A stretch of 64,000 nucleotides of DNA from Vulcanimicrobiota bacterium (lineage in GTDB: Bacteria; Vulcanimicrobiota; Xenobia; Xenobiales; JADMJV01): assembly GCA_050250895.1 (NCBI GenBank), contig JBFWNU010000001.1, forward strand, positions 840,008 through 904,007, read 5' to 3'. Below the pieces are notes generated by a model. It ran no database searches, was not told where the DNA came from, and saw nothing but the letters and a program-made list of their open reading frames with translations. Shown here in pieces: positions 4,886 to 61,347 of the stretch. The translations under genes were made by a program, and so were the position numbers. Each line of letters starts with the position of its first letter. Positions within the stretch are counted from its first letter, which is position 1.

Positions 4886-4894
4886 GAGCCACCT

Positions 4895-6267: not shown

Positions 6268-6291
6268 CAGCACCGGCTTGGCCGGCCAGAG

Positions 6292-7577: not shown

Positions 7578-7581
7578 AGCG

Positions 7582-7938: not shown

Positions 7939-8066
7939 AGGATTGTCCTCGCTTTCTCACAGAGCACTCACCATACTAGGGTGCTCGACTCAAATCCTTC
8001 CAGCAGGAACTGGACGGTTGATGATACAAGAGACGCGACTAAATTACAACCCCTGTGAGGTCCTCC

Positions 8067-10178: not shown

Positions 10179-13100
10179 ACGCGCCTTTTTCTGCCACCAC
10201 CCAGGCCTGGTTCGAGCGCCATTTCGCCGCCCCGACCAAGGTCCAGCGAGAAGGCTGGGAGGCCATCTCGCGGGGCGAGCACGCCTTGCTGCTGGCTCCT
10301 ACCGGCAGCGGCAAGACGCTGGCGGCTTTTCTGTGGTGCATCGACCGCCTGATCAACCAGAACCAGCGCAAAGGCACCTCGGTAGTCTATGTCTCGCCCT
10401 TGAAAGCGTTGGTCTACGACATCGAACGCAATCTGCGGGCGCCCCTGGCCGGCGTCACCCGGGCCGCTCAACTCGAGAATCCCCCCACCGTGGCGGTGCG
10501 CACCGGCGACACCCCTCAGCGGGAACGGGCCCGCCAACTAAAGCATCCGGCCGACATTCTGGTCACCACCCCAGAATCGCTCTACCTGATGTTGGGCTCG
10601 CGCCAGGCTCTGAATCTGACCGCCGTCGAGACGGTCATCATCGACGAAATCCACGCTCTGGCCGGCACCAAGCGAGGGGCCCATCTAGCCCTGACCCTCG
10701 AGCGCCTGGCCCGACTGGGCCAGGGCGATCCGCAGCGAGTAGGTTTGTCGGCCACCGTGCGTCCGGTCGACACGGTGGCCCGTTACCTGGGTGGCGATCG
10801 GCCCGTTACCGTCGTCGATACCCTCGAGCCCCCCCATATCGAGCTCGAGATCATCGTTCCGGTCGAAGACATGGAAAATCCCGGACCTGCGCCCGAACCC
10901 TCCGGGGGCTCGGTCTTGGGTCAGCTGCTCTCACAAGAGCAGGGGTCCGAAGGCACCGCCAGTGTGTGGCCCTCGATCTACCCGCGCCTGCTCGAGCAGA
11001 TTCAGGCTCATCGCTCGACCATCGTGTTCGTCAATAGCCGCGGCCTGTGCGAACGGCTGGCTCTGCGGCTCAACGAACTGGCCGGTCAGGAGCTGGTGCG
11101 GGCCCATCATGGTAGCGTCTCGCACGAAAAACGGGAAGAGATGGAAGAATCGCTCAAGAGCGGCCAGCTCAAGGCGATCATCGCCACCAGCTCGTTGGAA
11201 CTGGGCATCGACATGGGAGCGGTCGACCTGGTGCTGCTGGTCGAATCGCCCGGCTCGGTGGCGCGAGGACTGCAAAGGGTCGGGCGGGCTGGTCACCAGG
11301 TCGGCGAAATCAGCGCCGGGAAGATCTTTCCCAAGTTTCGCGGAGATCTGCTCGAGTGCGCGGTGGTGGCCAATCTGATGCGGCAGGGAGCCCTGGAGCC
11401 CCTGCGATTGCCCCATAACCCACTCGACGTGTTGGCCCAGCAGGTTGTGGCCATGGGCGCCACCGGGCCTCTCAAGCTCGAAGAACTCGAAGCCTTGCTG
11501 GCCCGCACGGCCAGCTTTGAAAGCCTGTCGCGCGAGATTTTGTTGGGACTGCTCGACATGCTGAGCGGGCGGTTCCCCTCCACCGATTTCGGTGAACTAC
11601 GGGCCCGGCTGGTCTGGGATCGCGACACCGACACGCTGACCGCTCGACCGGGGGCCAAACAGCTGGCCCTGGTCAATGCCGGCACCATCCCCGACCGGGG
11701 CCTCTACGGTGTCTACATCGGTCACGACGGCCCCCGGGTGGGCGAACTCGACGAAGAGATGGTCCACGAGGTCCGGCCCGGTCAGAACTTCTTGCTGGGA
11801 GCCAGTTCCTGGCGCATTCAAGAGATCACACGGGATCGAGTCATCGTCAGCCCTGCCCCCGGTGAGCCGGGTCGCATGCCGTTCTGGCATGGCGATCGCC
11901 CCGGGCGACCCATCGAACTCGGCCGGGCCATCGGCGCGTTCCTGGGCGAACTGGGCGCCAAGAAACGCTCGGCCGCCGAAAGTTGGCTCGAAGAGCACAC
12001 TGTTCTCGACGTTCTGGCTCGTCGCAACCTGCTGGACTATCTCGACGAGCAGAAGTCTTTCACGGGCGTGCTACCCACCGACCGGCGGGTCATCATCGAG
12101 CGTTTCCGGGATGAGCTGGGGGACTGGCGGGTCTGTATCCTGACCCCTTTTGGGGCACGCGTTCATGCTCCCTGGGCTCTCGCCATCGAGTCGGTGCTCA
12201 GCCAGCAAGCCGGCTTTGATTTTCAGACCCTTTGGACCGACGACGGCATCGTGCTCAGGCTAGCCGAAACCGACGAGTTGCCGCGCCTGGACCTGCTGGT
12301 GCCCGACCCCGATCTGGTCGAGGACCTGGTGCTCGAGCAACTGGCCAACTCGGCCGTGTTCGCCAGTCACTTCCGTGAGAACGCGGCTCGGGCCCTGCTC
12401 TTGCCCCGCCGGCGACCAGGCAAGCGCACCCCGCTGTGGAGCCAGCGTTTGCGAGCCAAGAACCTGCAAGCCGTAGCCATGGCCCACTCCAACTTTCCCA
12501 TCGTGCTCGAGACCTACCGAGCGTGCCTGCAAGACGTCTTCGACATGCCGTCGCTGGTCGAGTTGCTGCGCATGTTGTCGGATCGGCGCATCGCCCTCGA
12601 AGAGGTCGAGACCGAATCGGCTTCGCCCTTTGCTCGCTCGCTGGTCTTTGCCTATGTGGCCGAGTATCTGTACGAGGGCGACAATCCCCTGGCCGAGCGC
12701 AAGGCCCAGGCCCTGACCCTCGACCGCAACCTGCTGCGCGAACTGCTCGGACAAGAAGAGTTGCGCGACCTGCTCGACTCCGCCGTGCTCGACGAAGTCG
12801 AGGCCGAACTGCAGGGGCTAGCTGCGGACCGTCAGGCCACTTCTCGCGAAGCGCTATTTGACCGGCTGCGTCGCCTGGGAGACCTCAGCCTGGCCGAGGC
12901 CGAGGCCCGTTGCCAGGGGCCGGCTCGCCAGTGGCTCGGGGAACTCGAGAAAGAACGTCGGGTGGTCCGCCTTCACCTGGGCGGCGAGCCTCGCTGGGTC
13001 AGCCTGGAAGACGTGGCTCTCTACCGCGATGCTCTGGGGGCCGTCCCGCCTGGCGGGCTGCCGGCCGCTTTGCTCGAGCCCGTCAGCGGCGCGCTCGAGC

Positions 13101-15577: not shown

Positions 15578-16294
15578 ATGGTGTTCAACAACGTATTCGG
15601 GGCCTTTCGGCGCCTACTGCCGGGCGGGGGCACACCCACCGACGAAAGGCGCGAGATCGTCCGGGTCAACTGCAAGCTCCCGGCTAGTTGCGAGATCGGG
15701 GGTGACAAGATCTCGGTGACGGTTGTCGACATGGGGTTGCGCGGCCTGCGCATCGAAAGCCCGAAACGCCTCGGTAAAGGCCGCAAGGTGACGGTCAGCC
15801 GACCCAACCACGGCGGCCCGGTCGAGTGCAAGGTAGTCTGGAGTTCGGCCAGACGGTTCGCCGAGGTCTTTCAGGCCGGCCTGCAATTCACCGACACCGT
15901 CGATAACATGCGTAAGTCCTGGATTAAAGGCACCCTCCAGCAATTGGGGTTCTCGCCCGGGCGAATCAAAGAAAAACGCAAACACATCCGCCTGCCAGCC
16001 GAACAACGGGCCACCATCCAGAACACTTCCGGAGATATCCTCACCGACGGAGTGGTCATCAATCTCGGGATTGGCGGCGCCCTGATAGCCCTGGACATCG
16101 AGGTGGCCAAGACGGTCCCCGTGGTCTTGGTGGTCGACCCTCTCGCGAATTTGGCGCCCCTCGAGATGCCCAGCGAAATCCGAAGCTGCTACCGCCCCAA
16201 GAATTCCAGACAATATTTTCACGGCCTTCGTTTTCACGATCAGGATAACGATCTGGTCAAGCGCTACCTCGCGGTCCTTTTGAAGGGCCACTGA
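15578..16294 (+). CDS. Tandem PilZ-domain protein
   Basis: ERREIVR...DMGLRG and EKRKHIR...NLGIGG motifs. Confidence 0.8.
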   Translation: MVFNNVFGAFRRLLPGGGTPTDERREIVRVNCKLPASCEIGGDKISVTVVDMGLRGLRIESPKRLGKGRKVTVSRPNHGGPVECKVVWSSARRFAEVFQAGLQFTDTVDNMRKSWIKGTLQQLGFSPGRIKEKRKHIRLPAEQRATIQNTSGDILTDGVVINLGIGGALIALDIEVAKTVPVVLVVDPLANLAPLEMPSEIRSCYRPKNSRQYFHGLRFHDQDNDLVKRYLAVLLKGH

Positions 16295-17295
16295 TGAAAG
16301 ACCGTTTCGGCCGACCCCTCAAGAGCCTGCGCATCTCGGTCACGGACCGTTGCAACTTGCGCTGCCTGTACTGCATGCCCGAAGAGGAGTACGTCTGGCT
16401 CCGGCGTGACGACCTCCTGAGTTTCGAAGAACTCTCCGACACCGTGGACCACTTTCTCTCGTTGGGACTCGAGCGGGTCCGCCTCACCGGCGGTGAGCCG
16501 CTACTGCGCCGCAATCTGCCCCATCTGGTCGAGCTACTGAGTTCGAAACCCGCTCTGCGCGAGGTGGCCCTGACCACCAACGGGCTCCACCTGGCCCGTC
16601 ACGCCAGGTCGCTTTTCGAGGCTGGGCTGAGCCGCGTCACCGTCAGCCTGGACACTCTCTCGCCTGACCGATTCAAACGCCTGGCTCGGCGTCACAACCT
16701 CGAGGATGTGCTGGCCGGCATCGCGGCGGTGGCCCATACGCCGGGACTGAAATTCGACACGGTCGTGTTGGCCGACGAAAACGACCAGGAGTTGCCTCAA
16801 CTGCTCGAATTCGCCGCCCAGGTGGGAGCCGAGGCCCGTTTCATCGAGTACATGGATGTGGGCGGAGCTACTCAGTGGTCGCCCGGCCGTGTCGTCACGG
16901 CCAGCGAGATGCTGGCTCGCCTGGAGCGCGAGTTCGGGGCCATCACTCCCCTGCCCGCGCTCGATTCGGCGCCGGCCCGGCGCTATCGATTGGCCGATGG
17001 TCAAACCTTCGGAATCATTTCGTCGGTGAGCGAGCCGTTCTGCGCCAGTTGTGACCGCGCTCGACTGACTGCCGACGGCCAGCTCTTGCTCTGCCTGTAT
17101 GCCACCCGCGGACACGACTTACGGGGCTGGTTGCGGGGCGGCGAGGATGTCTCGGCCCGGCTCACCCAGGTGTGGTCGGCCCGCACCGACCGGGGCGCCG
17201 AACAGAGGGCTGCCCTGGAAAAACGGGGAACTTTCATCCCCATCGAAGAACTGCGTTGCGATCCACATCTAGAAATGCACACGCGAGGCGGATAG
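16294..17295 (+). CDS. moaA: GTP 3',8-cyclase MoaA
   Basis: LRISVTDRCNLRCLYC, LTGGEP, FCASCDRARL and C-terminal GG. Confidence 0.95.
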   Translation: MKDRFGRPLKSLRISVTDRCNLRCLYCMPEEEYVWLRRDDLLSFEELSDTVDHFLSLGLERVRLTGGEPLLRRNLPHLVELLSSKPALREVALTTNGLHLARHARSLFEAGLSRVTVSLDTLSPDRFKRLARRHNLEDVLAGIAAVAHTPGLKFDTVVLADENDQELPQLLEFAAQVGAEARFIEYMDVGGATQWSPGRVVTASEMLARLEREFGAITPLPALDSAPARRYRLADGQTFGIISSVSEPFCASCDRARLTADGQLLLCLYATRGHDLRGWLRGGEDVSARLTQVWSARTDRGAEQRAALEKRGTFIPIEELRCDPHLEMHTRGG

Positions 17296-44616: not shown

Positions 44617-45549
44617 ATGGACGGTAGTGAGTTTTTCGAGAAGATGCTGGCCAACCTCGAGCGGGTGGTCCGGGGCAAGAAGGAAGTGCTGGAACAGTTG
44701 CTGGTCGCCATTCTGGCCGGAGGCAACGTGCTGCTCGAAGATGTTCCCGGAGTCGGCAAGACCACTCTGGCCAAGACGCTGGCCCGCACCATCGGGGGCG
44801 ACTTCAAGCGAGTCCAGTTCACGCCCGACTTGCTGCCTACCGACATTCTCGGCTCTTCCATCTACAACCCCAAGGAAGGCTCTTTCGATTTCAAACGGGG
44901 TCCGGTCTTTGCCAACATCCTGCTAGCCGACGAAGTCAACCGCGCCTCGCCCCGCACCCAGTCGAGCCTGCTCGAGGCCATGAGCGAGCGCCAGGTCACC
45001 ATCGAGGGCGTCAGCTATCCTCTGCCCGAGCCCTTTCTGGTTCTGGCCACCCAGAATCCGGTAGAATTCCACGGCACCTATCCCCTGCCCGAGGCCCAGC
45101 TCGACCGCTTCGCCATGAAACTGGCCATGGGCTATCCCAGCCTGGAAGACGAATTGTCGGTGCTCGAAGGCCAACGGCGGGCCCACCCCCTCGACAGCCT
45201 GGAGGTGGCCGCCAAACTCGAAGAGGTGATCGAGGCCCAGGCAGCCGTGCGCGAGGTGAAGGTAGCGCCCGAGGTTTCTCGCTACATCCTTGGCCTGGTC
45301 CACGCCACCCGTGAAGAGCCGCGCTTGAAGCTCGGCTCGAGCCCCCGCGGTGCCCTGGCCCTCTATCGCAGCAGCCAGGCGCGGGCCTTCACCCAGGGCC
45401 GAGACTACGTCTTGCCCGACGACGTCAAGGCCCTGGCCATGGCCGTGTTGGCTCACCGGTTGGTGCTCGACACCAAGTCCAAGTATTCGGGGGTCTCCAA
45501 AGCCACCATCACTCAGGAGTTGCTCGAAAAGGTGCCCGTCACGGCTTGA
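44617..45549 (+). CDS. MoxR-family AAA+ ATPase
   Basis: LLEDVPGVGKT, QFTPDLLPTD, ADEVNRASP and ATQNP...PLPEAQLDRF. Confidence 0.93.
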   Translation: MDGSEFFEKMLANLERVVRGKKEVLEQLLVAILAGGNVLLEDVPGVGKTTLAKTLARTIGGDFKRVQFTPDLLPTDILGSSIYNPKEGSFDFKRGPVFANILLADEVNRASPRTQSSLLEAMSERQVTIEGVSYPLPEPFLVLATQNPVEFHGTYPLPEAQLDRFAMKLAMGYPSLEDELSVLEGQRRAHPLDSLEVAAKLEEVIEAQAAVREVKVAPEVSRYILGLVHATREEPRLKLGSSPRGALALYRSSQARAFTQGRDYVLPDDVKALAMAVLAHRLVLDTKSKYSGVSKATITQELLEKVPVTA

Positions 45550-46772
45550 GACGCTTCGACCTGGGAGAGACTTTCCTGGCTCGCTGGATGCGCGCCCTCT
45601 TCCGCGATCGCTTGACCGAACCGGGCCGCTGCGTGTTCTGGTTGTTCCTGCTGGCCACCGCCATCGGCATGACCTCTTTCGTGGTGCATGTCTACCTGGT
45701 CTGGTGCGCTTTGCTGGGCATCAGCCTGACCTCGATCGTGGCCGCCCGACTGGCCCGAGTGCCACTGAGCCTGAGAGCCGAACTGCCCGAGCGGGTGACC
45801 TGCGGAGCCGAGGTGGCCATCACCGTGACCGCCCACAACCCCAACCCACGCCGCGCTGTGGATATCGAATTGCGGCCCTATCGACTGCCCCCGACCATGC
45901 AGTGCCGGCCCACCACCGTGCGTTTTCAAGAGATCGCGCCAGACCAGACCGTGAAATCGGCCCTGCAACTAAGCTTCCGGCAACGAGGCCACTACCTCTT
46001 GCCGGGCTGGCGCCAGGACTGTCTCTTCCCCTGGGGATTATGGCGCGACAGCCTGACTCACGAGCGACCCGCCGCCCTGCTGGTCTATCCTCACTTCATT
46101 CCACTGGCCAGCCTGGACATTCCAGTGGGGCGACGCTACCAGCCCGGAGGCATCGCGCTCACTTCTTACCTGGGCGACAGCACCGAGTTCTTGTCCACCC
46201 GCGAGTTTCGCGAAGGCGACAGCATCCGCTCCATCCATTGGAAGTCGTGGGCCCGTCTGGGCAAACCGATCGTCAAGGAATTCCAGGAAGAGTACTTCTG
46301 CCGGATCGCCCTCCTGCTGGACACCTTCCTACTCGACTCCGGCCAGGAGCGCGACACCTTCGAGGCGGCCGTGTCACTGGCCGCGGCCGTGGCCGACAGC
46401 CTATCGCGCGATGAATACGTCATCGACATCTTCGCGGCCGGGCCTGAACTGTATCACTTTCAGGCCGGACGCAGCCTGGCTTATCTGCAGAACGTGATGG
46501 ACATCCTGGCCTGCATCGAGCCCTCGCAAGACCCGCCTTTCGAGAAGATCGAGCCCGTCCTCTTGGAGTTTCTCGAGAACATCACCACCACCGTGGTGGT
46601 CCTGCTCGACTGGGATGAACGCCGTCAGCGGATGCTGCGCGTGATCCGCGAGCGCGGTTCGGCCGTAAAAGCCGTGTTGGTGCGCGAGACTCCCCCCAAG
46701 CAAGACCCGGCTGAAGAGGGCCTGATCTGGCTCAAACCCGAACAAATTCGAGCCGGAGTCGAAGACCTGTGA
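45546..46772 (+). CDS. DUF58 domain protein
   Basis: EFLSTREFREGDSIRSIHWKSWAR...IVKEF. Confidence 0.88.
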   Translation: MRRFDLGETFLARWMRALFRDRLTEPGRCVFWLFLLATAIGMTSFVVHVYLVWCALLGISLTSIVAARLARVPLSLRAELPERVTCGAEVAITVTAHNPNPRRAVDIELRPYRLPPTMQCRPTTVRFQEIAPDQTVKSALQLSFRQRGHYLLPGWRQDCLFPWGLWRDSLTHERPAALLVYPHFIPLASLDIPVGRRYQPGGIALTSYLGDSTEFLSTREFREGDSIRSIHWKSWARLGKPIVKEFQEEYFCRIALLLDTFLLDSGQERDTFEAAVSLAAAVADSLSRDEYVIDIFAAGPELYHFQAGRSLAYLQNVMDILACIEPSQDPPFEKIEPVLLEFLENITTTVVVLLDWDERRQRMLRVIRERGSAVKAVLVRETPPKQDPAEEGLIWLKPEQIRAGVEDL

Positions 46773-48748
46773 GCCGCCTGGAACTGGCCGTGGTAGCCTG
46801 CGGACTGGTGGCCTTCGGCGTAGTGGCCGGTCCCATCTGGCAAAGCGCCGCCACGGTCCTGCTGGGGCTGCTAGCCATCGGTCTGCACGCAAGTCTGGAA
46901 ATCCCGCGCTTCGGTCTCTTGCTGGCCGGCCTGGGGCTGGCCCTGGTCAACTTCTTCCGCACGCCCACCGAACTGCCCGAGGGTTGCTCCTTCGTGGGGC
47001 CGGCCAGCCTGGTGGTAGCGTTCTATATGGTGCTGCTCACTCTGCTGGGCGTCATCCGGCGCAACGCCAGGTCAGAGCGACTGGTGGTGCTGGCGGGGGC
47101 GGTGGCCATCAGCATCGCCAGCGGCATGACCACCAGGTTCTTTCCCTTCGTGGTGGTGGTGCTCGCCCAGGCCGTGTTGCTGGCGCTGGCCCTGCGTCAC
47201 TATCGCGGTCTGCCCTTTCGCCCGGGCACCTTGTTGGCCTTCCTTCCGGCCATGCTCCTGGCCGGGGGTCTGGCCGTTTCCCTCAAGTGGTCTGATGGTC
47301 AACTCAACAGCTGGGTCGGGCTTTTCTCGTCGGCCGTTTCGGTATCGGCTCGCTTTCCGGCCACGGCCAAGTTGACAGCCATCCAGAGCCTGCAGGGCAG
47401 CGACGGCATCGTGATGAGAGTCTTCTCGGACAAGCCCCCAGAGTACCTGGCCGGTCGTTGCTATACCCTGTTCACCGGCGATAGCTGGGAGTGGAAATCC
47501 GAACAACGCGGCAGCCATCCTGAACCCGGCCTGACGCTAACGGGCATCACGCCCGAAATGCAGGTCTATCAGGTGGTGGCCGAGGTCGAACCGGAGCGGG
47601 TCGACCGCTACGAATTTCCCGGGGGGCGCTACGCCGGAGCCACGCTCTTCACCCCGCGCGACATGGTCCGACTGGCCATCGAGGTAGGAGGACTGAAGAT
47701 CTATCGCGGGGAGATCTATCAGTTGCTGGCCGCCGACGCCTTTTCGGGCACCTATTACGTGGGGCGCAACCCCGCCTATCATCACCAAGAGAAACTCACG
47801 CCCGAGCTCCGTGAGGCCTATCTCCAATTGCCCAAAGCGCTACCGCCGGTGGTAGGACGGTTGGCCCAGGAGGTGGCCGGCCGCCAACCGGATCTGGCCG
47901 CGGCGGCCACCCTCGAGAAGTATCTGCAAGAGAACTTTCAGTACGGATTCGACTATCCGTTCGACTCCGGCAGAAATGCCCTGGAGCAGTTCTTGACCGA
48001 ACGCCCGCCCGCCCACTGCGAATTCTTCGCCACCTCGCTGACCATGATGCTGCGCACTCGCGGCATCCCGGCTCGCTACGTCACCGGCTTTCTGGTGCGC
48101 GAAGAGAGCCCCTGGGGGGGGTATCACGTGGTGCGAGTAAAACACGCCCACGCCTGGGTCGAAGCCCATCTGGGAGGGGAATGGGTCCGCTTTGATCCCA
48201 CCCCTCCCGGCGCCCTACCTGAGCCGGGGGCCTTCGAGTCTTTCTATCACGGCCTGCTGGAGTACATGGCCTACCAGTGGCGCCGCTTTCGCTCTTTTCT
48301 GTCGCTCTCGCCGATGGCCATGGCGCGGGCTCTTTTGGCCCGCTTGAGCGGGGCGGGGCGGTGGTTGACCGCCAACCCGTGGGTGGTCCTGTTGGCCCTC
48401 GGCCTGGGGGCGGGGTGGCTGGGTCGGGGGAGACTGGCCGATTGGTTCGCCTCCTGGGGCGGGAAACCACGCTGCGAGCCTACCACCCCGGACCCGCTGG
48501 GACTGCAACTGTTCGAGTTCGAAAAGCTCATGGCCGCGGCCGGACTGCCTCGCCCTCCCCATCTGACCCTGCTGGAATGGTCGGGCGGCTGGGCCCACCA
48601 GGACGAAGAGGCTCTGGCTCTGGCCAGACAATGGGTCGACTCTTTCTGCCGGGCGCGCTACGGCTTCGCCCCGCCGGAGCCTCAGCTCGAGCAACTGCTA
48701 GAGCAACTCTCCAAGAGGAACTGGGACAACTCCGCGAGAACGCGGTGA
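46769..48748 (+). CDS. Membrane transglutaminase-like protein (TgpA-type)
   Basis: Multiple TM helices; HCEFFAT, ARYVTGF, HAWVE and FDPTP triad motifs. Confidence 0.87.
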   Translation: MSRLELAVVACGLVAFGVVAGPIWQSAATVLLGLLAIGLHASLEIPRFGLLLAGLGLALVNFFRTPTELPEGCSFVGPASLVVAFYMVLLTLLGVIRRNARSERLVVLAGAVAISIASGMTTRFFPFVVVVLAQAVLLALALRHYRGLPFRPGTLLAFLPAMLLAGGLAVSLKWSDGQLNSWVGLFSSAVSVSARFPATAKLTAIQSLQGSDGIVMRVFSDKPPEYLAGRCYTLFTGDSWEWKSEQRGSHPEPGLTLTGITPEMQVYQVVAEVEPERVDRYEFPGGRYAGATLFTPRDMVRLAIEVGGLKIYRGEIYQLLAADAFSGTYYVGRNPAYHHQEKLTPELREAYLQLPKALPPVVGRLAQEVAGRQPDLAAAATLEKYLQENFQYGFDYPFDSGRNALEQFLTERPPAHCEFFATSLTMMLRTRGIPARYVTGFLVREESPWGGYHVVRVKHAHAWVEAHLGGEWVRFDPTPPGALPEPGAFESFYHGLLEYMAYQWRRFRSFLSLSPMAMARALLARLSGAGRWLTANPWVVLLALGLGAGWLGRGRLADWFASWGGKPRCEPTTPDPLGLQLFEFEKLMAAAGLPRPPHLTLLEWSGGWAHQDEEALALARQWVDSFCRARYGFAPPEPQLEQLLEQLSKRNWDNSARTR

Positions 48749-53219: not shown

Positions 53220-53600
53220 TTGAAAAGAATCACGACCGTCGCGCTGTTGCTGTGCATCCTGGTGGCTCCAGCCCTGGCTCTGGAAGATATCAACGAGCCC
53301 GGCAAGAAGACCAGTGTCAAGCAACACTTCGAAGAAGGCAAGAAGACCATGGTCTTCTTTTACGCCCGCTGGGACAAAACCGCCAACCGTCTTCAGGTCG
53401 AACTCGACCGGTTCGACAAAGTCGACGAAGAGTGGAAAATCCTACGCGTTCGATTGAAAACCCTCAAGGATCCGGTGGCCGGCCAGTATGCTATCAGCCA
53501 GGTACCTGCGTTTCTCCTCTACGACGAAAAGGGCAATCTGATGGCCCAGGGCGCTACGGCCTATAGCGAAGTCCTCAAAATGCTCGAAGCTAATCGATGA
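53220..53600 (+). CDS. Secreted thioredoxin-fold protein lacking CxxC
   Basis: TTG start after GGAGG; signal peptide; FFYARWDKTA and cis-Pro-like VPAFLLYD. Confidence 0.65.
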   Translation: MKRITTVALLLCILVAPALALEDINEPGKKTSVKQHFEEGKKTMVFFYARWDKTANRLQVELDRFDKVDEEWKILRVRLKTLKDPVAGQYAISQVPAFLLYDEKGNLMAQGATAYSEVLKMLEANR

Positions 53601-54763
53601 CCGAACTGGCCAGTTGGCGCGCCGACACCCCCGGCTGCGCCCAGGTAGCCCATTTCAACAACGCCGGAGCAGCCTTGATGCCTGGTCCCGTCATTCGGGC
53701 GGTAAACGAGCATCTACAGCTGGAAGCCGAGCGCGGGGGGTACGAGGCGGCCCGTCGCCACCACGACCGACTCGAAGCGGTCTATGACTCGGTGGCCCGT
53801 CTTCTGGGCTGTGCACGCCACCAGGTGGCCCTGCTCGAAAATGCCACCCGCGCCTGGGACACGGTGTTCTATTCGCTGCCGCTGCGAGCGGGCGACCGCA
53901 TCCTCACCTCGGTCTCCGAGTATGCCAGCAACTACATCGCCTTTCTCCAGCGCGCCCGCCACACCGGAGCGTGCATCGAGGTCGTTCCCAACGACCGTCA
54001 CGGGCAACTCGACCTGGCCGCCCTGGCCGAGATGCTCGATGAGCGGGTTGTGCTAGTGGCCGTCAACCATGTTCCCACCAACAGCGGGTTGGTTCAACCG
54101 GCCGCGGCGATTGGTGCTCTGCTGGCCGACCATCCCGCCCTTTACCTTCTGGATGCCTGCCAATCGGTAGGCCAGATGCCCACCCAGGTGGACGATCTCG
54201 GCTGCGATTTTCTCTCGGCTACCAGCCGAAAATATCTGCGAGGCCCGCGAGGGGTTGGCTTTCTGTATGTCCGCCGACCGGCAGCCCTCGAGCCGGCCGT
54301 GTTGGACCTGCATGCAGCCCAGTGGACCGCGCCCCAAAGCTATACCATCCGAGAGGACGCGCGACGGTTCGAGACCTGGGAGGGATTCGTAGCCGGACGC
54401 CTGGGGTTGGGGGCGGCCGTCGACTACGCTCTCGAAGTGGGCCTGAAGCGAGCTTGGGCGCGCCTGTCGCGATTGGCCGAGCAACTCCGGAGCAAGCTGT
54501 CGCAGATAGAAGGAATTACCTTGACCGACTACGGCGAGAGACTGGGCGGAATCGTGACGTTCACTTGCGGTCTGGCTGCCGACGACCTCCGGGACCGCCT
54601 CGAGCGAGAAAACATCAATGTGTCGACCTGTTCTAACTTCTCCGCTCGCCTGGACATGGAGGGCAAAGGACTAGAAAGAGTAGTGCGGGCCTCGGTGCAT
54701 TACTACAACAGCGAGGACGAAATCGACCGATTGGCTCAAACTCTGAGTTTGCTCAGGGCCTGA
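53597..54763 (+). CDS. Class V PLP-dependent enzyme (cysteine desulfurase / C-S lyase-like)
   Basis: HFNNAGA, LDACQSVG, ATSRKYLRGPRG and RASVHYYN. Confidence 0.87.
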   Translation: MTELASWRADTPGCAQVAHFNNAGAALMPGPVIRAVNEHLQLEAERGGYEAARRHHDRLEAVYDSVARLLGCARHQVALLENATRAWDTVFYSLPLRAGDRILTSVSEYASNYIAFLQRARHTGACIEVVPNDRHGQLDLAALAEMLDERVVLVAVNHVPTNSGLVQPAAAIGALLADHPALYLLDACQSVGQMPTQVDDLGCDFLSATSRKYLRGPRGVGFLYVRRPAALEPAVLDLHAAQWTAPQSYTIREDARRFETWEGFVAGRLGLGAAVDYALEVGLKRAWARLSRLAEQLRSKLSQIEGITLTDYGERLGGIVTFTCGLAADDLRDRLERENINVSTCSNFSARLDMEGKGLERVVRASVHYYNSEDEIDRLAQTLSLLRA

Positions 54764-55296: not shown

Positions 55297-55433
55297 AATG
55301 GGAACTTGCGATCCGAAAAGCGCGTTGTTGAGGCCGTCAAGGAGGGATCGTTCTGTCAGAACGATAACTAGTGCACCCCCGTTACCACTACCGTGCCCGC
55401 CGCCAGGCAGGCTCAGGAAAGGAACTCAGCAAA

Positions 55434-56573
55434 GTGAAATTTCCCCCATTCGATCTCCAGCGCCTCTTGAAAACGGTCTTCGAGCCAGCCAAAGGCGAAA
55501 AGGTCTGTATTCTGATCGACCTGGACGACCCCACCAAAGTCCGCGATTTCGCCTTTCTGAAAGACTCTCGCTGGAGCGTCCAAAAGATGGCCCACGACCA
55601 CTTCTATCAGGGCCTGAAAAACGGGGCTGCCGAAGCTCTTGGTCTGACCGGAGGCGAGCTTTTCTGCTATGAGATGACCGGCGGCAGCAACCTCGACCTG
55701 CCGGACCGGGCCGTGGCCGTCGACGGCACCGAACTTAGCCTGGAGAAGGACATTTACCCCAACTACGACCTGATTCTCTGCATCTCGACCTATTCGGCCA
55801 CCGCTCCGCTGACCGCCTCGGCCAAGCAGCACGGCTTCCGCGGGGCGACCCTGCACGGACTCAACGACATCATTCTCAATTCGGGTCTGGCCGTCGACTA
55901 CAACCAGGTGAGCGAGCAAGCCGAGCGCCTGCGCAAAGGCATGTCGGGTGCTGACGCGGTCGAGATCGACACCAGCGTGAACGGCAAGACCTATACCGTT
56001 CGCATCGAGTTGGGCAAGCAAGAAGCCCAAAAGAGCCACGGTCTGTGCCGCACCGGGCCCGACATCGCCAACCTTCCGGCTGGCGAGGTCTACTTTGTTC
56101 CTACGGGAGGCGAGGGCCAATTCCCCTTCAAGCTCGAAGACGGCAGCCTGGCCCTGCTCGAGGTCGAGGGTGGACGCGTGGTCGAAGTCGGCTTCCTGTC
56201 TGGCGACCAGACCGAGGTCGAGTCCTTCCGCCAGCGAATCCTAACCGACCCTGCCACCGGCTTTTTGGGCGAGCTGGGCTTCGGCACTCAGGAACTGCCC
56301 GTTTCTGGCCAGGACATTCAAGACGAGAAGATCTTCGGTACCTTCCACCTGGCCACCGGACGCAACGACCACCTCGGCGGAGACATTACCACCGACAAGT
56401 TCGAAGAGAAGAAGAACGCTTCGCACGACGACATCCTCTTCTCGCGCGAGAAGACTCCCGAGATCGGCGCCCCCAAAGTGCGTATGTATCGGGGAGACTC
56501 GGTGCAGGTGCTCTACGAGAACTATGGAGCAGGAGAGTATCTGAAATCGCTGGCCCATGGCCAACCCGTATGA
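55434..56573 (+). CDS. Aminopeptidase-like protein (M29/thermophilic metalloprotease fold)
   Basis: NLPAGEVY, GELGFG, DEKIFGTFHLATG and HDD. Confidence 0.72.
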   Translation: MKFPPFDLQRLLKTVFEPAKGEKVCILIDLDDPTKVRDFAFLKDSRWSVQKMAHDHFYQGLKNGAAEALGLTGGELFCYEMTGGSNLDLPDRAVAVDGTELSLEKDIYPNYDLILCISTYSATAPLTASAKQHGFRGATLHGLNDIILNSGLAVDYNQVSEQAERLRKGMSGADAVEIDTSVNGKTYTVRIELGKQEAQKSHGLCRTGPDIANLPAGEVYFVPTGGEGQFPFKLEDGSLALLEVEGGRVVEVGFLSGDQTEVESFRQRILTDPATGFLGELGFGTQELPVSGQDIQDEKIFGTFHLATGRNDHLGGDITTDKFEEKKNASHDDILFSREKTPEIGAPKVRMYRGDSVQVLYENYGAGEYLKSLAHGQPV

Positions 56574-57312
56574 AACCGATAAGCTGGTAGCTGAATACCT
56601 GCTTCTTCACTACGGTGAACCGGCCCAGGTCTTCCCTTACGGCTTCGGCCCCAGGGAGGCCCTGGGCTTTCCCGTGCGCTGCGTCCACGAGTTGGCCCAG
56701 CCCCAGCCCGGCTCGACCGCACTGGAGTTGGGATGCGCGGTGGGGCGGGCCGCCTTCGAACTTTCGCGCACCTGCTCGAGAGTCGTGGCCATCGACTACT
56801 CTCAAGCCTTTATCCAGGCTGCCCAGAGAATGGCCTACCAGCGCGAAGTGGCCTTCCGGGTGCCCGATGAAGGCGAACTGACCACCGAGTGTCAGGCCCG
56901 GCTCTCGGATGAAATGCACCCCGAACGGGTCGAATTCGAGGTAGGCGACGCCACCGCTCTGCGGGCCGATCTGGGCAGTTTCGACCTGGTGCTGGCCGCG
57001 AATCTGCTGTGCCGGCTGCCGGATCCCCAGCGCTTGCTCAGCCGGCTGCCCGAACTAGTCAACCCGGGCGGCAGGTTGGTGATTACCTCACCCTACACCT
57101 GGATGGAAGAATACACTCCGCGTTCACGCTGGCTGGGCGGCTTTCACCGGGACGGCGAAGCGGTTCGCAGCCTGAGCAGCTTGCAAGCGGCTCTGGCCGA
57201 CAGCTTTCAACTCGACGAGACCCGGGACGTCCCGTTCTTGATCCGCGAGCATGCCCGCAAATACCAGTGGAGCGTGGCCCAGGCCAGCCTGTGGCGGCGG
57301 GCAGGAGCCTGA
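56557..57312 (+). CDS. SAM-dependent methyltransferase resembling the OvoA C-terminal (mercaptohistidine N-methyltransferase) domain
   Basis: NPYETDKLVAEYLLLHYG, ALELGCAVGR, ANLLCRLPDP, SPYTW and PFLIREHARKYQ. Confidence 0.78.
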   Translation: MANPYETDKLVAEYLLLHYGEPAQVFPYGFGPREALGFPVRCVHELAQPQPGSTALELGCAVGRAAFELSRTCSRVVAIDYSQAFIQAAQRMAYQREVAFRVPDEGELTTECQARLSDEMHPERVEFEVGDATALRADLGSFDLVLAANLLCRLPDPQRLLSRLPELVNPGGRLVITSPYTWMEEYTPRSRWLGGFHRDGEAVRSLSSLQAALADSFQLDETRDVPFLIREHARKYQWSVAQASLWRRAGA

Positions 57313-57358
57313 CCCTTCTCGTCAGAAAACGTCCACCCAATGACGACGGGGGCTGGTT

Positions 57359-57757
57359 TTGAAAAAGGTTTACCCTGAGCGATACGACTACCTCGAGGTC
57401 ACCGAGGTTGGCAAAGAACTCTTCGTTTTCTGTCCCAGAGAGAACCAGGCCTATGCCATGAACCCCACGGCCGCCGAGTTCTTTGGCTGGTGCGATGGCC
57501 AGACCTCGGTGTCAGAGATGGAGCAACGCCTAGGGGGCGGCGAGCAAGCTCACGATCTGGCTCTATTGACTCTCGGCTCGCTGCGTTCGCAGGGGTTGAT
57601 CGCCATGGACGAGGGTAGCCTCAACCGCCGTGAGTTCTTGCTAAAGTGGGGCACGGCAGCGGCCGCCCTGCCGGTCGTCTCTTCGGTCTTCGTTCCCAAA
57701 GCCGCCGAGGCAGCCAGTGCCACCAGCTCCACCACTACCACGGAAACGCCTGCTTGA
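57359..57757 (+). CDS. PqqD/RRE domain fused to an RR-leader and a Ser/Thr-rich tail (candidate precursor 1)
   Basis: EVGKELFVF...AYAMNPTAAEFFGWCDGQTSVSEM...LRSQGLI, then NRREFL...AAEAASATSSTTTTETPA. Confidence 0.8.
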   Translation: MKKVYPERYDYLEVTEVGKELFVFCPRENQAYAMNPTAAEFFGWCDGQTSVSEMEQRLGGGEQAHDLALLTLGSLRSQGLIAMDEGSLNRREFLLKWGTAAAALPVVSSVFVPKAAEAASATSSTTTTETPA

Positions 57758-57838
57758 GCTAGAGCCATGTCTGATGGCAGGAGTCTGCCCCTCTCGTCAG
57801 AAGTCCTGCCGCAGACTGATGACTAAGGGGGTCTGGTT

Positions 57839-58273
57839 ATGAAACGCACTTTCCCTGAACGCTACGAATATCTCGAGGTTACCGAGGTCGGCGACGAACT
57901 CTTCGTTTTCAGCCCTAAAGAGAACCAGGCCTATTCTCTGAATCCCACTGCAGCCAAACTTTTTGGTTGGTGCGACGGCAAGACCTCGGTGCCAGAGATG
58001 GAGCAACGCCTCGGAGGCGACGAGCAAGCCCGGGACCTGGTGCATTTGACTCTTGGCACACTGGCTTCGCAAGGACTGATCGCGATGGACGAGGGCGGCC
58101 TCAACCGACGAGAGTTCTTGCAAAAGTGGGGGGCGGCTGTGGCCGCCCTACCGGTGGTGACTTCGGTCTTCGTGCCCAAAGCTGCCCGGGCCGCCAGTGC
58201 CACCACCACCACGAGCACCACCGAAGAAGCCACGACCACCGAAGAATCTACCACTACCACAGAACCGCCTTGA
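57839..58273 (+). CDS. PqqD/RRE domain fused to an RR-leader and a Thr/Glu-rich tail (candidate precursor 2)
   Basis: Paralogue of 57359; NRREFL...AARAASATTTTSTTEEATTTEESTTTTEPP. Confidence 0.8.
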   Translation: MKRTFPERYEYLEVTEVGDELFVFSPKENQAYSLNPTAAKLFGWCDGKTSVPEMEQRLGGDEQARDLVHLTLGTLASQGLIAMDEGGLNRREFLQKWGAAVAALPVVTSVFVPKAARAASATTTTSTTEEATTTEESTTTTEPP

Positions 58274-58274
58274 G

Positions 58275-58934
58275 CTAAAAGCAATAGCCCAGATGAGCCA
58301 GTTCTCTCGCGAAGAGTTCCTCTACGTAGCGGCGGCTCTCGGGGGTAGGATACCACTTCATGTAGGGTTGCCGATCGCTGCGATATCTCGTCTTTGCTTT
58401 CGGTAGCTCGACTTGCGCCTCGATCCCGATCCGTTCAAGAGCCAGAGCCAGGTCGGCCTCGAGGTCCTCAAAGCGCCCGATGAAATCGACCGCCTGACGC
58501 CCCGCCAGACTCCAGATGTTCCAATCGGCCAACCTTCGGTAGCGACCCCGGGCGAGAAACTCTTGGAAGCTCAACCCTCTGGCGGCCCGAGAGCGTTGAA
58601 AGAAATAGCTCGAAACGAGCTTGTCAAAAGGATTTCTCTCAAAGCAAAACTTGAAGTAATCACTGAGAAACTCAATGCTCTCGCCTTGCGCCTTGAGCTT
58701 TTCGAGCACCTGCGCCAAGGTGACGTGAGCACGAAAGCGCAGGCGCCCCTCAGACGCCAGATGGTTCTGGGGCCCCGGATAGCCGAGCCGCCGCCGCAGA
58801 CGCTCATCCTCTGGACTGACTTCGGTGATGATATCCGCCGGCCCGCAAAACTGGGAAAGAAAGATCTCGATGCTCGTCCCAGCGGTCTTGTGGGTCTTGA
58901 GGAAAAGAAATTTATGCTTGTGGGACAAGATCAC
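58275..58934 (-). CDS. Sulfotransferase (Sulfotransfer_2-type)
   Basis: HKHKFLFLKTHKTAGTSI (5'-PSB), FERNPFDKLVSSY (3'-PB) and DFIGRFEDL. Confidence 0.82.
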   Translation of the reverse strand: MILSHKHKFLFLKTHKTAGTSIEIFLSQFCGPADIITEVSPEDERLRRRLGYPGPQNHLASEGRLRFRAHVTLAQVLEKLKAQGESIEFLSDYFKFCFERNPFDKLVSSYFFQRSRAARGLSFQEFLARGRYRRLADWNIWSLAGRQAVDFIGRFEDLEADLALALERIGIEAQVELPKAKTRYRSDRQPYMKWYPTPESRRYVEELFARELAHLGYCF

Positions 58935-59022
58935 TAGGGCGCCTTCCACGCCAAACTCGGTTGACCTTGGAGTTGGCCCTGGAAGGAACGGCTCATTCTC
59001 TCACAAAGGAGCGGAAACTACG

Positions 59023-59748
59023 ATGAGTTCGCGCAAATTTCGAGCCTATGGAGTGCCGTTCAGCATCGATGGTCCGGATTCGATCGAGCTGCCGGTAGGA
59101 ACCCAGGTCAGCTCGGAGGGGGTTGGCGTCGGTCTCCATTTTCAAATGCGGACCGAGGGCAAGGGTCGCGTTCTTTATCTCGATGGCCAAAGAATAGGGC
59201 GCCCCTATCGACGTCACGAGACTTTTCTCCGTCACGCAGCCAGAAAAGTCGAGTTTCAAATCGCCCTGCGGGCCCCCGACCTGGTCTTCGTTCACGCGGG
59301 GGTGGTCGAGTGGAGCGGTCTCGGTTGGTTGCTTCCGGGCTCTTCAAGGGCCGGCAAGAGCACCCTGGTGGACGCTCTCTTGCGAGCGGGGGCAACCTAC
59401 TATTCGGATGAGTTTGCCCTCATCGACGAACACGGTCTGGTGCACCCCTACCCTCGCCCCCTCAAGCTTCGCAACGGCACTCCCACCGCAGCCGCGAAGC
59501 TGGCCGACAAGCCTCTGGTAGTCGATAGGGTGCTGGTGACCGAGTTCGAACCAGGCGCGGCCTGGCAGCCTGTTTCCCTGAGCCCGAGCGAGGTCTGCGT
59601 TCAGCTGATGGCCCACACCCTCACGGCTCGTCGACACCCCGGTCGGGCCATGGCCTTTTTGGCCAGATTGGCCCAAGGCGCCCGAGGCTTTCAGAGTCTT
59701 CGCGGTGAGGTGGTCGAGACCGTCGAACGCTTGAAGGACCTGACATGA
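59023..59748 (+). CDS. HprK-related P-loop kinase
   Basis: RBS AAGGAG; FVHAGVV, GSSRAGKSTL, YYSDEFALID and HPYPRPL. Confidence 0.8.
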   Translation: MSSRKFRAYGVPFSIDGPDSIELPVGTQVSSEGVGVGLHFQMRTEGKGRVLYLDGQRIGRPYRRHETFLRHAARKVEFQIALRAPDLVFVHAGVVEWSGLGWLLPGSSRAGKSTLVDALLRAGATYYSDEFALIDEHGLVHPYPRPLKLRNGTPTAAAKLADKPLVVDRVLVTEFEPGAAWQPVSLSPSEVCVQLMAHTLTARRHPGRAMAFLARLAQGARGFQSLRGEVVETVERLKDLT

Positions 59749-60479
59749 CAGGCGAGCAGGTCAGGCTGCTGGTGCTGGGGGCGCCCCGGTCGGGGACCAC
59801 CCTGGTCACGGCCATGCTCGCCTGCCATCCCGAGATCGCCATGCTCAACGAGGATCTCAACGGTTCTATCAGGCTCTTGCTGTCCAAGCGTGTGGTGGGC
59901 AACAAGCTGTGCGTCCCTAATCAGATCGGGCTAGAGCCTCCGGGACACTTCGAGGCTATGGCCCGTCGTTTCTATTTCCGTCACCAGGCGGTCAGAAAAT
60001 TGGCGCGACGACTGGGTCTGGGCTGGTGGAACCCGATGTCCAGGCTGCCCCTGCGGGGCTATCTTCGCTTGCCGGGCAGCCGGGTGCTGGGCATCCTGCG
60101 CCACCCGGGGGCCGTGATTCCGTCGATCATGCGTCGCGGCGGACAGCCAGAGTGGGTGGCCCGGCGGCGATGGAACCAGGCTGTCGACATTCTAGCCCGT
60201 TTGAGACAGACCATCCCCGACCGTTGTATCCTGCTTTCCTTTGAAGAGCTACTCGAGAACCCACCGGTCGTGTTGGACCGGCTGCTCGAGCGGCTCGATT
60301 GTGCCTATGACCCACGGGTTTTGTTCGGTTTCGCGCATACCCGTAACTATCAAAACACCAGTCTGGATCGCTCGAAGATCGTGCCCGAATGGTCCGACGA
60401 CCAATGCGGCGGGCTCCGAAACTGGCGCCTCTACCAGGATTTGAAAGGCCTAACCATCGGCCACGAGAAGGATGCCTAG
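59745..60479 (+). CDS. Sulfotransferase
   Basis: VLGAPRSGTTLV, LRHPGAVIPS and SFEELLENP; ATGA-coupled to the kinase. Confidence 0.82.
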   Translation: MTGEQVRLLVLGAPRSGTTLVTAMLACHPEIAMLNEDLNGSIRLLLSKRVVGNKLCVPNQIGLEPPGHFEAMARRFYFRHQAVRKLARRLGLGWWNPMSRLPLRGYLRLPGSRVLGILRHPGAVIPSIMRRGGQPEWVARRRWNQAVDILARLRQTIPDRCILLSFEELLENPPVVLDRLLERLDCAYDPRVLFGFAHTRNYQNTSLDRSKIVPEWSDDQCGGLRNWRLYQDLKGLTIGHEKDA

Positions 60480-61347
60480 CGTGCTCATGCACGAAAAGAT
60501 GGTTTACCTCCAGCCTTTCGTGCGCTCTCCGCAGGCCGACGACATCGTCGTTCTGGGAAGCGGAAGAAGCGGCACCACCTGGCTGCTCGAGATGTTGATC
60601 AGCCTGCCTGGCTATCGCGGCGTGATGGAGCCGTTTCAGCCCAAGAACGCCAGCCACTTTCCCCAGAATCCCCGCTATAGCCGTCGCTATCTCAGAGAGG
60701 GCGCCTGTGAGCCCGAACTGGAGGCCTATTTTCAAAGGCTCTTTCACCAGGAACTCGACTCTGACTGGTGGTGCGCCTGGCCCGCTTTCAATCGGCGGCC
60801 CCGGCGTTACCAGACCGTGCTCAAGACCATTCGGGGCTTGCTGATGATCAACTGGATGAAGACCTTGCCCGTTCGCTTTATCTACTTGCAGCGCGAGCCG
60901 GTAGCTACCCTCGGCAGCTGGGTCAGAATCGGGTGGGGAGAATCGGTGACGGATCTGGCCGTGTTTGTAAACCAACCCGAGTTGGTGGAAGACCACCTTC
61001 AACCGGTCCACCACCTCCTCGGCCGAGTGCAAGCCGAGGGCAGCAAGTTCGAGCAGGCAGCCGCCTGCTGGTGGATCGAGAACCTGGTGGCCCAGAGAAC
61101 TCTACCGCCCGGCAGCCTGAGGCTCAGCTATCAAGAGCTTACTGACAATCGCCCAGAGAGCCTCGATCTCATCTGTGGCTTCATGGGTCAAGAGCGCCCG
61201 GAGTTCCTGGTCAGCAGCAGCCAGCGGCGTTCCAAAACGACGGTAGGAGTCACCCGGCCAAACCCTGAGCTGGAGAGAGCTGTTCGAAGAACGCTAGACT
61301 CGCTGGAGGAACTGGCCCCACGCACTGGTCGGGTCAGAAACGGCTGA
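60472..61347 (+). CDS. Sulfotransferase
   Basis: VLGSGRSGTTWL, MEPF, QREPVATLGS and SYQEL. Confidence 0.82.
   Translation: MPSVLMHEKMVYLQPFVRSPQADDIVVLGSGRSGTTWLLEMLISLPGYRGVMEPFQPKNASHFPQNPRYSRRYLREGACEPELEAYFQRLFHQELDSDWWCAWPAFNRRPRRYQTVLKTIRGLLMINWMKTLPVRFIYLQREPVATLGSWVRIGWGESVTDLAVFVNQPELVEDHLQPVHHLLGRVQAEGSKFEQAAACWWIENLVAQRTLPPGSLRLSYQELTDNRPESLDLICGFMGQERPEFLVSSSQRRSKTTVGVTRPNPELERAVRRTLDSLEELAPRTGRVRNG

Follow-up and report, generated by a model that had tools for sequence, protein, structure and literature searches.

Two candidate peptide precursors joining a RiPP recognition element to a twin-arginine-type signal, found beside an HprK-related kinase and three sulfotransferases in a Vulcanimicrobiota genome

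Introduction

Peptides that are made by ribosomes and altered by post-translational modification (RiPPs), depend on a RiPP recognition element (RRE) and are tailored by a kinase are already known as a kind of system. The present work deals with a gene cluster from a Vulcanimicrobiota bacterium formed by two tandem genes for the putative precursors A and B, a kinase related to HPr kinase (HprK) and three sulfotransferases, ST1, ST2 and ST3. It lies in a stretch of 64,000 nucleotides (GenBank assembly GCA_050250895.1, contig JBFWNU010000001.1, positions 840,008 to 904,007 of the forward strand), the whole of which was analyzed and is here called the window. A close published class is that of the linear polyphosphorylated peptides (LPP; lppA-K-B-S-D-N), restricted to Bacillota according to Popov et al. 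(Nat Commun 2026, PMC13381572), whose clusters combine a precursor with conserved leader and variable C-terminus, a separate RRE, a kinase similar to HprK, a SipW-like signal peptidase, an MsbA-like exporter and an NTP transferase. In these clusters, LppK adds up to four phosphates to Ser3 of the core, by a signal-peptidase-I-type cleavage site, and the leader peptidase cuts the unphosphorylated form poorly and prefers the phosphorylated one (PMC13381572). In lasso peptides of the paeninodin/pseudomycoidin type, an HPr-kinase homologue phosphorylates a single Ser of the linear precursor, sometimes repeatedly, and some of the phosphorylated-lasso clusters carry putative, uncharacterised sulfotransferase genes (PMC8498205).

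The window cluster shares with LPP a linear peptide, RRE-dependent and without cyclase, a cluster-encoded kinase of HprK type (in LPP the primary tailoring enzyme, here presumably so), a single Ser next to a site of signal-peptidase type (Ser120 here, the predicted target), where an enzyme of signal-peptidase-I type takes off the LPP leader and would do so here, a conserved front with highly variable C-termini, one to three precursor genes per cluster and, as in the relatives of the window's organism, the frequent location of related cassettes in polysaccharide loci. On the contrary, it differs in that (i) the RRE is fused to the precursor, LppB being discrete, (ii) the leader motif YxxPxVLxHQxIxFETxxS is not in A or B, which show a signal of twin-arginine translocation (Tat) type instead, (iii) the window is without a SipW-like peptidase (LppS), an MsbA-like exporter (LppD) and an NTP transferase (LppN), (iv) its cluster includes three sulfotransferases, and (v) its host is a diderm with TamB and TatC. 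The text of the LPP paper has no occurrence of 'sulfotransferase', 'twin-arginine' or 'signal peptide' (PMC13381572). The window system would work like LPP but, given these differences, is not LPP. With the phosphorylated lasso peptides it shares a PqqD-type RRE paired with an HPr-kinase homologue, and a cluster of that very kind, with kinases and three sulfotransferases, exists elsewhere in the window's genome (L071, see below); it differs in lacking an Asn-synthase-like cyclase and a B2 peptidase, in a presumed acceptor Ser that is not C-terminal, in its cis-fused RRE and in the Tat-type signal. The original prediction, made from the DNA alone, held that the cluster fits no recognised standard class and overlooked that a class as close as LPP has been published.

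Further points of reference are less close. The HPr-rel-A system of NCBIfam (TIGR04352, HprK-related kinase A; TIGR04353, PqqD family peptide chaperone), for which no paper was found, provides the best NCBIfam match of the kinase and, in 8 of the 21 paralogues scanned, that of the RRE domain (TIGR04353, 20.6-23.3 bits), and an NTP_transf_5 gene stands beside the cassette in 6 of 20 annotated loci. Nonetheless, all scores are far under the curated cut-offs of 200 and 35, A and B do not match TIGR04353 at E<=0.01, the PqqD part is fused to signal and cargo instead of free-standing, and the window is without a nucleotidyltransferase. TorD and DmsD are proofreading chaperones that bind Tat signal peptides. 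A and B resemble such pairs in their (S/T)RRxFL motif, Ala-rich h-region, basic c-region residue, AxA motif and associated cytoplasmic binding domain, but their signal starts near residue 88, behind a folded domain, and the binding domain is a cis-fused RRE fold and not of the TorD family. Finally, RaxX/RaxST constitutes a tyrosine-sulfated RiPP system and the protein-tyrosine sulfotransferases (TPSTs) are eukaryotic; the window likewise has a sulfotransferase of the TPST/CurM-like group, dependent on 3'-phosphoadenosine-5'-phosphosulfate (PAPS), beside a ribosomal peptide precursor, while differing in tails without Tyr and in three sulfotransferases from two Pfam families. Literature searches, whose reach did not include about 1.7 million PMC articles or the majority of subscription journals, found no paper on an RRE fused to a twin-arginine signal and none that links HprK-type RiPPs to sulfotransferases.

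Here we propose that A and B, in which an RRE, a Tat-type signal and a short core rich in hydroxyl and acidic residues follow one another, give rise to an exported peptide of ribosomal origin that is tailored by enzymes, a proposal whose chances we consider evenly balanced. Its product would probably be a secreted, negatively charged peptide. New in comparison with the systems above are the cis-fused RRE and Tat signal, the apparent use of general export machinery, the sulfotransferase trio accompanying a Thr-rich core and a 27-copy expansion in one genome.

Results

The six genes listed in the original prediction are all present where it had placed them (Table 1), and its picture of two tandem genes that encode a PqqD-like domain, an RR-containing segment and a divergent tail agrees with the alignment of A and B, in which 92 of 116 residues are identical (79%, E 2e-71) and identity stops where the tails start. 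After Ser120 the tails read ATSSTTTTETPA in A and ATTTTSTTEEATTTEESTTTTEPP in B, and neither holds Tyr. The AlphaFold2 (AF2) model of B, obtained from an alignment of 94 rows, displays a predicted local distance difference test score (pLDDT) >90 for residues 1-85, which fold as strands 13-17, 20-25 and 30-34 followed by helices 36-44, 51-57 and 62-77 (beta-beta-beta-alpha-alpha-alpha). In a Foldseek comparison of this model with the PDB the best matches are all RREs, with template modelling scores (TM) on the target of 0.61-0.80, headed by the lasso B1 proteins TbiB1 (5v1u_B, TM 0.76 on target) and TfuB1 (6jx3_B, TM 0.80, rmsd 2.1), whose matches cover 0.72-0.80; PbtF RRE, TigE, the RRE domains of cyanobactin heterocyclases and PqqD (5sxy) also appear. 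Modelling thus indicates that the N-terminal domain of A and B has the RRE fold, as had been put forward for it. Against the Pfam profile PqqD (PF05402, cut-off 23.4 bits), B scores 27.2 bits and paralogues up to 43.1, while A, at 21.7 bits, stays just below, so that the PqqD assignment holds by this measure for B and narrowly misses for A.

The segment that follows, previously regarded as a mere conserved hydrophobic stretch, is better described as a signal peptide. It consists of NRREFL and a hydrophobic stretch, and ends in P-x-P-A-x-A-x-S. An (S/T)RRxFLK consensus, a basic c-region residue and the AxA rule are features of Tat signals, and the TIGR01409 profile (TAT_signal_seq) recognizes residues 88-118 of B with 20.0 bits (cut-off 16.7), as it does in 3 of 21 other paralogues scanned (20.5-23.1 bits). 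In the family alignment of 151 proteins, R88 is conserved in 151, R89 in 149, P103 in 144, and P111 and A116 (-2 from the Ser) in 143 each, while alignment position S118 holds Ser in every one of the 141 sequences with a residue at that place, 10 others being gapped. In B the RR motif occupies residues 90-91, behind a folded domain of 85 residues and not at the N-terminus. The window's genome encodes TatC (213.9 bits). On these sequence features, the segment is a Tat-type export signal with an A-x-A-x-S site. A lipoprotein reading was discarded, the first Cys after the AAAS site being at no fixed distance.

Such a signal would allow general machinery to handle both export and leader removal, which explains the absence of protease and transporter genes from the cluster. 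At position -1, the usual signal-peptidase site tolerates Ala, Gly or Ser, so that a Ser that is never replaced suggests a second constraint on this residue. Since described relatives phosphorylate one Ser by the cleavage site or at the C-terminus, Ser120, and not the Thr-rich tail, is by analogy the likeliest target of the kinase. The tails, originally proposed as cores to be phosphorylated, thus keep their place as the variable and presumably released part, but yield to Ser120 as the presumed site of phosphorylation.

The same segment might instead retain A and B in the membrane as uncleaved single-pass proteins, N-terminus in and tail out, with the RRE recruiting the kinase for signalling in an anti-sigma-like layout. 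The positive-inside RR motif, the single hydrophobic stretch and the variable outer part would fit this arrangement, as would the sigma factor or two-component genes near several paralogue loci. Nonetheless, the stretch is short, Ala-rich and broken by the Pro at position 103, and continues into the near-invariant P-x-P-A-x-A-x-S typical of cleaved signals; tails of 12-24 residues would be poor sensor domains, and no regulator is conserved beside the module. We therefore consider such an anchor very improbable and continue with the reading of the segment as a cleavable export signal.

A and B are members of a larger family built on this RRE-signal module. Searching the 9.5-Mb genome of the window with B gave 23 matches, and with profile A3, made from N-terminal parts, 30 matches, 27 of them spanning the whole module. 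Alignment and cargo were surveyed for 23 modules, the full modules C1:1863109, C1:355844, C11:17541 and C1:1560870 and the near-full C9:236198 being outside this survey. The 23 have in common a PqqD-like domain with a CDG motif, (S/T)RRxFL, a short Ala-rich stretch broken by Pro, and P-x-P-A-A-A-A-S with the Ser invariant, after which all similarity is gone. In 20 of them the cargo is a Cys-rich domain of ~110 residues, usually ending in Y-x-C-C-x-x-C, and short, Cys-free, Thr-rich tails are found only in A, B and a third member, L009:5995-6411. Four paralogues exhibit two tandem PqqD-like domains by virtue of an extra N-terminal one. The 20 Cys-rich genes are spread over 19 loci (L010-L028) amid unrelated genes; at L025 the paralogue adjoins an ABC exporter and a QhpE-like subtilase (NF049966, 101.5 bits, below cut-off), and at L010 a large subtilase. 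A common maturase for the Cys-rich paralogues was considered and rejected, the neighbours in the 19 loci being heterogeneous and without radical SAM or kinase.

Beyond this genome, a HMMER scan of 1.84 billion cluster representatives with profile A3 yielded 10,210 matches at E<=1e-3, 5,075 at E<=1e-10 and 24 at E<=1e-30, and all of the 150 matches listed extend to at least profile position 116, that is, through the signal to the cleavage-site motif. Their cargo includes knottin-like Cys patterns, Gly/Pro/Asp-rich stretches, collagen-like GPTG repeats, Thr runs (P0021, P0039, P0010) and a vWA domain (P0087, 632 aa), and is absent in some members, part of which may be truncated records; cargo length across the family goes from 0 to >450 residues. 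In a relative of the window's organism, locus L033 (G002:C11:3575-6907) encodes two PqqD-like domains and a Tat-type signal followed by a vWA-type protein of ~460 residues, so that the module also fronts full-size secreted proteins. The cargo is extracytoplasmic in type (Cys-rich domains, the vWA of L033), and three loci have MauE/thioredoxin neighbours. In a sample of the phylum, 24 of 400 other genomes have a match at E<=1e-12, or 25 of 401 once the genome of the window is counted, mostly large genomes of the same order. A word-based homologue search with B found nothing beyond A and B themselves, and no relative turned up when metagenomes were scanned with two Thr-rich homologues, P0021 and P0039. 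The original prediction described the A/B pair properly but missed that both belong, with their short tails, to a family that numbers 27 full modules here and thousands of clusters elsewhere, mostly with Cys-rich cargo.

Regarding the kinase, the three motifs first read in it (H-A-x-V, GxSxAGKST and SDE) are found (Table 1). Its AF2 model has a pLDDT of 93.7, and Foldseek gives 8 matches at E<=1e-3, including HprK/P (3tqf, 1kkl) and PEP carboxykinases. HprK/P and PEP carboxykinase share their fold. According to the model, the enzyme has an HprK/P-like P-loop fold.

The pairing of module and kinase was surveyed in the 40 nearest genomes, which include families f1, f2 and f3. Module and kinase are distributed almost alike: the module occurs in 11/15, 4/5 and 1/19 genomes of these families, respectively, and the kinase in 13/15, 4/5 and 0/19. 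Half of the full modules (18/36) lie within 5 kb of a kinase, mostly at 0.2-3 kb, and 22 of 42 kinases within 5 kb of a module. Genes with Cys-rich cargo are among the pairs (L031, L036, L038, L040), so that what goes with the kinase is the module rather than the Thr-rich tail. The kinase is thus a conserved partner of the module family. Neighbours that recur in the 20 annotated loci are NTP_transf_5 (6), MauE alone or together with thioredoxin (3), genes resembling Asn synthase (3) and exopolysaccharide genes. In relatives the kinase often comes in two copies, one active and one whose P-loop is degenerate and which is probably a pseudokinase (L053, L057, L062, L064, L066, L067); both copies are adjacent in L053, L057, L064 and L067.

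A model of the complex between kinase and B reached a score of 0.86 (0.86, 0.86 and 0.85 in three runs), compared with 0.01 for the best control. Among 157 solved complexes 116 attain the mark for this score, as do 2 among 215 mismatched pairs, counts that are only approximate here as custom alignments were used. The runs share at least 72% of contacts, and partner pLDDT is at least 75. Kinase helices 187-218 contact B residues 13-35, the strands of the RRE, and H91, S107 (P-loop), E130 and F131 of the kinase contact B 108-119, directly ahead of Ser120. We know of no solved kinase-RRE complex that the prediction could simply have reproduced. The kinase is thus predicted to dock on the RRE sheet, with B 108-119 at its active site.

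This geometry bears on a further explanation, in which the fused RRE would be a built-in Tat proofreading chaperone, masking its own signal until the kinase phosphorylates the c-region, the tail being untailored and no RiPP chemistry taking place. Conservation of RRE and signal ahead of cargo that varies so widely in length and includes an ordinary vWA domain would be expected from it, the monomer model of B places a strand at residues 107-111, within the signal (pLDDT 65-70), and TorD and DmsD offer a precedent as signal-binding chaperones of Tat substrates. On the contrary, in the complex model it is the kinase, and not the protein's own signal, that occupies the RRE sheet, and the sulfotransferases would be left without a role. 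The HprK-like partners of RREs described in two reports are, moreover, tailoring enzymes (PMC13381572, PMC8498205). A built-in chaperone is accordingly held to be improbable, and tailoring by the docked kinase remains the reading followed here.

The three proteins originally credited with PAPS-binding motifs are all sulfotransferases above the Pfam cut-offs (22, 27 and 27 bits for ST1, ST2 and ST3; scores in Table 1), and translation of ST2 and ST3 is coupled to that of the kinase, the kinase stop overlapping the ST2 start (ATGA) and the ST2 stop the ST3 start by 8 nt. Among solved structures, ST2 comes closest to the CurM sulfotransferase (E 3.5e-6) and to protein-tyrosine sulfotransferases (E 8e-6); ST3 shows weak PDB matches to cytosolic sulfotransferases only, and neither it nor ST1 has informative PDB relatives. 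The window's genome contains an adenosine-5'-phosphosulfate (APS) kinase and, on this gene content, can make PAPS. Both of its loci with Thr-rich tails, the window and L009, have sulfotransferase or sulfotransferase-like genes, while the 19 loci with Cys-rich cargo gave no sulfotransferase match (neighbours L017:8690-12331, L021:1052-4480 and L028:1091-4228 being outside the scan). Tail sulfation is suggested by this clustering within the window's genome, a weaker link than that of the kinase. To our knowledge, no enzyme, bacterial ones included, has been named for O-sulfation of Ser or Thr in peptides.

Two other loci of this genome deserve description. L009 (G000:C1:493867-506268) holds the third Thr-rich family member (5995-6411), with the tail MDGPGGDTATTTDLTGTITG. 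Its flanking genes encode an AAA_33/zeta-toxin-like P-loop kinase (5318-5902), of another family than the window's kinase, a 389-aa sulfotransferase-like protein (6512-7681; Sulfotransfer_3 E 5e-5, below cut-off; GSRSGST motif), a JmjC_2 protein and a 491-aa protein without assignment. L071 (G000:C1:3471000-3487000), outside the window, is a lasso-type cluster with a cyclase-like gene (4162-6000; lass_lactam_cya, 243 bits), a discrete lasso-type PqqD (6051-6380), a 2-oxoglutarate (2OG) oxygenase/TPR gene, two HprK-related kinases (7214-8131 and 9756-10589), Sulfotransfer_2, _1 and _3 genes, the same three Pfam families as in the window, and GT8. A 44-aa open reading frame (ORF) on its minus strand (8128-8262) shows a WxxPxF leader motif and a C-terminal Ser. 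By its gene content, L071 is a candidate cluster for a phosphorylated, possibly sulfated, lasso peptide.

In the window itself (Table 1), ST1 is convergent with B and divergent from the kinase, 73 bp separating ST1 and kinase. A and B are each preceded by a GGGGG run resembling a ribosome-binding site, and their upstream DNA is alike, so that the duplication takes in the leader region. For the kinase, the start of the listed ORF at 58825 was judged to make it too long, and the ATG at 59023, preceded by GGAG, is favoured. Pfam scans of the window ORFs agree with the original prediction that no lasso cyclase, B2 peptidase, peptide-type radical SAM or nucleotidyltransferase (NTP_transf_5) stands beside the cluster; they also gave no signal-peptidase or ABC exporter match near it, and no polysaccharide gene, including glycosyltransferase and polysaccharide export genes, among the ORFs scanned. 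The sole radical SAM gene of the window is of MoaA type, and otherwise the window carries housekeeping genes (for ValRS, FtsZ, xanthine-dehydrogenase-type proteins, TamB and PilZ proteins). Directly upstream of A, three genes may form a split thiol-histidine (ovothiol-like) set, with no link to the cluster seen. A transglutaminase-like gene in an operon farther upstream was considered as lasso B2 peptidase and ruled out by its context.

Table 1. Coordinates of the cluster, its parts and neighbouring genes within the window
Feature	Position	Strand	Description
Precursor A	57359..57757	+	132 aa, TTG start; family profile match E 2.2e-41
A, RRE/PqqD-like domain	57359-57613		residues 1-85
A, Tat-type signal	57620-57718		NRREFL...PKAAEAAS, residues 88-120
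A, tail	57719-57754		12 residues, Thr/Ser-rich
Precursor B	57839..58273	+	144 aa; PqqD 27.2 bits, TIGR01409 20.0 bits
B, RRE/PqqD-like domain	57839-58093		
B, Tat-type signal	58100-58198		NRREFL...PKAARAAS
B, tail	58199-58270		24 residues, Thr/Glu-rich
Sulfotransferase ST1	58275..58949	-	224 aa; Sulfotransfer_2 (PF03567) 52.2 bits, E 1.2e-13; KTAGTS motif in translation
HprK-related P-loop kinase	59023..59748	+	241 aa; H91AGV, G105SSRAGKST113, S128DE130; TIGR04352 61.7 bits
Sulfotransferase ST2	59745..60479	+	244 aa; Sulfotransfer_3 (PF13469) 63.9 bits
Sulfotransferase ST3	60472..61347	+	291 aa; Sulfotransfer_3/1: PF13469 31.3 bits, PF00685 21.4 bits
ovoA C-terminal-type methyltransferase	56557-57312		directly upstream of A; TIGR04345 239 bits, above cut-off
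400-aa protein	55371-56573		no family match; overlaps the ovoA-type methyltransferase gene
Class-V aminotransferase	53597-54763		EgtE-like match
Operon	44617-48745		MoxR AAA ATPase, DUF58, transglutaminase-like gene
MoaA-type radical SAM gene	16294-17292		

Discussion

Several results weigh against A and B being precursors of a tailored and exported peptide. Regarding the precursors, the Foldseek E-values behind the RRE assignment are weak, the best being 7.4e-3, a signal peptide starting at residue 88 is unusual, and Ser120 itself falls outside the confident contacts of the complex model. As for the kinase, its match to TIGR04352 (HprK_rel_A), which spans residues 117-217 of the longer ORF, is present as anticipated from the original prediction (61.7 bits, E 5.8e-17) but stays far under the cut-off of 200; 13 related kinases score 31.5-64.3 bits or match HprK_rel_B only. 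In addition, phmmer detected no HprK in the PDB at E<=1, and a profile of the kinase reaches HprK only at E 0.004. Moreover, 25 of the 27 full modules of the window's genome are without a kinase within 5 kb, A and B being the only ones that have it, so that the kinase would have to act in trans or be dispensable; the three other kinase loci of this genome lie elsewhere. With respect to the sulfotransferases, ST2 is without a match at E<=1e-6 in the 40 relatives, and neither module nor kinase appears in any of the 7 loci with ST2 relatives from other phyla, so that the sulfotransferase link is not conserved. Tyr, the acceptor of the nearest solved protein-sulfating relatives of ST2, is missing from the tails. 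The co-occurrence of homologues expected from the original prediction hence holds for the kinase, found within 5 kb of 18 of 36 modules in the relatives, and fails for ST2. The nearest ST2 relatives in reference genomes, at 31-33% identity, come from metagenome-assembled genomes (MAGs) of Flavobacteriales and Vicingaceae (L112-L114), with no RRE module or HprK-related kinase nearby.

These last results lead to an explanation in which the kinase serves the module while the sulfotransferases act on polysaccharide, lipid or a small molecule, and A and B are exported mucin-like peptides, at most phosphorylated. It would account for relatives that keep module and kinase with no ST2 homologue, for ST2 relatives (Flavobacteriales, Vicingaceae and other MAGs) that stand apart from both, and for tails without Tyr, and it is in line with the module-kinase cassettes of relatives being placed amid exopolysaccharide genes (Wzz, Poly_export, Polysacc_synt_3, GT4, Wzy_C). 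Nevertheless, the scanned ORFs of the window offer no glycosyltransferase or polysaccharide export gene, ST2 and ST3 are coupled to the kinase in translation, and a kinase with three sulfotransferases recurs by the lasso-type precursor of L071, as does a sulfotransferase-like gene by the Thr-rich paralogue of L009. Sulfotransferases devoted to another substrate are thus rather unlikely in our view.

Returning to tailored and exported precursors, from the computed architecture, RRE fold, Tat-like motif, family size, kinase co-location and predicted docking, we infer the chemical steps, the export, the cleavage and the biological role. The precursor would be made in the cytoplasm, where its cis-fused, PqqD-like winged-helix RRE would stay. 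The HprK-related kinase would dock on the beta-sheet of the RRE and phosphorylate Ser120, possibly several times, and the three PAPS-dependent sulfotransferases might tailor the Thr/Ser-rich core while it is still cytoplasmic, this being the weakest step. The Tat system would then move the tail across the inner membrane, with the RRE left inside, and signal peptidase I would cut at A-x-A, freeing a strongly anionic peptide. Taken in full, namely with an RRE and Tat leader, with the host's Tat system and signal peptidase replacing a dedicated exporter and protease, with one kinase serving ~27 cargo genes, and with a product that carries phospho-Ser and O-sulfo-Thr/Ser in this cluster, the scheme is tentative and, as a joint claim, somewhat doubtful.

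Conclusions

If true, RiPP-style tailoring would extend beyond short leaders read by separate RRE proteins, and a very large, mostly unannotated family would carry the recognition domain on the substrate and use a general export route. The module would then provide a new precursor signature for genome mining, as well as a candidate substrate for the catalogued and unexplained cassettes of HprK-related kinase and PqqD, while the cluster would offer a testable case of peptide sulfation on hydroxyl residues other than Tyr. In the organism itself, the presence of 27 copies whose Cys-rich cargo changes fast points to a varied arsenal of secreted products or a varied surface coat.

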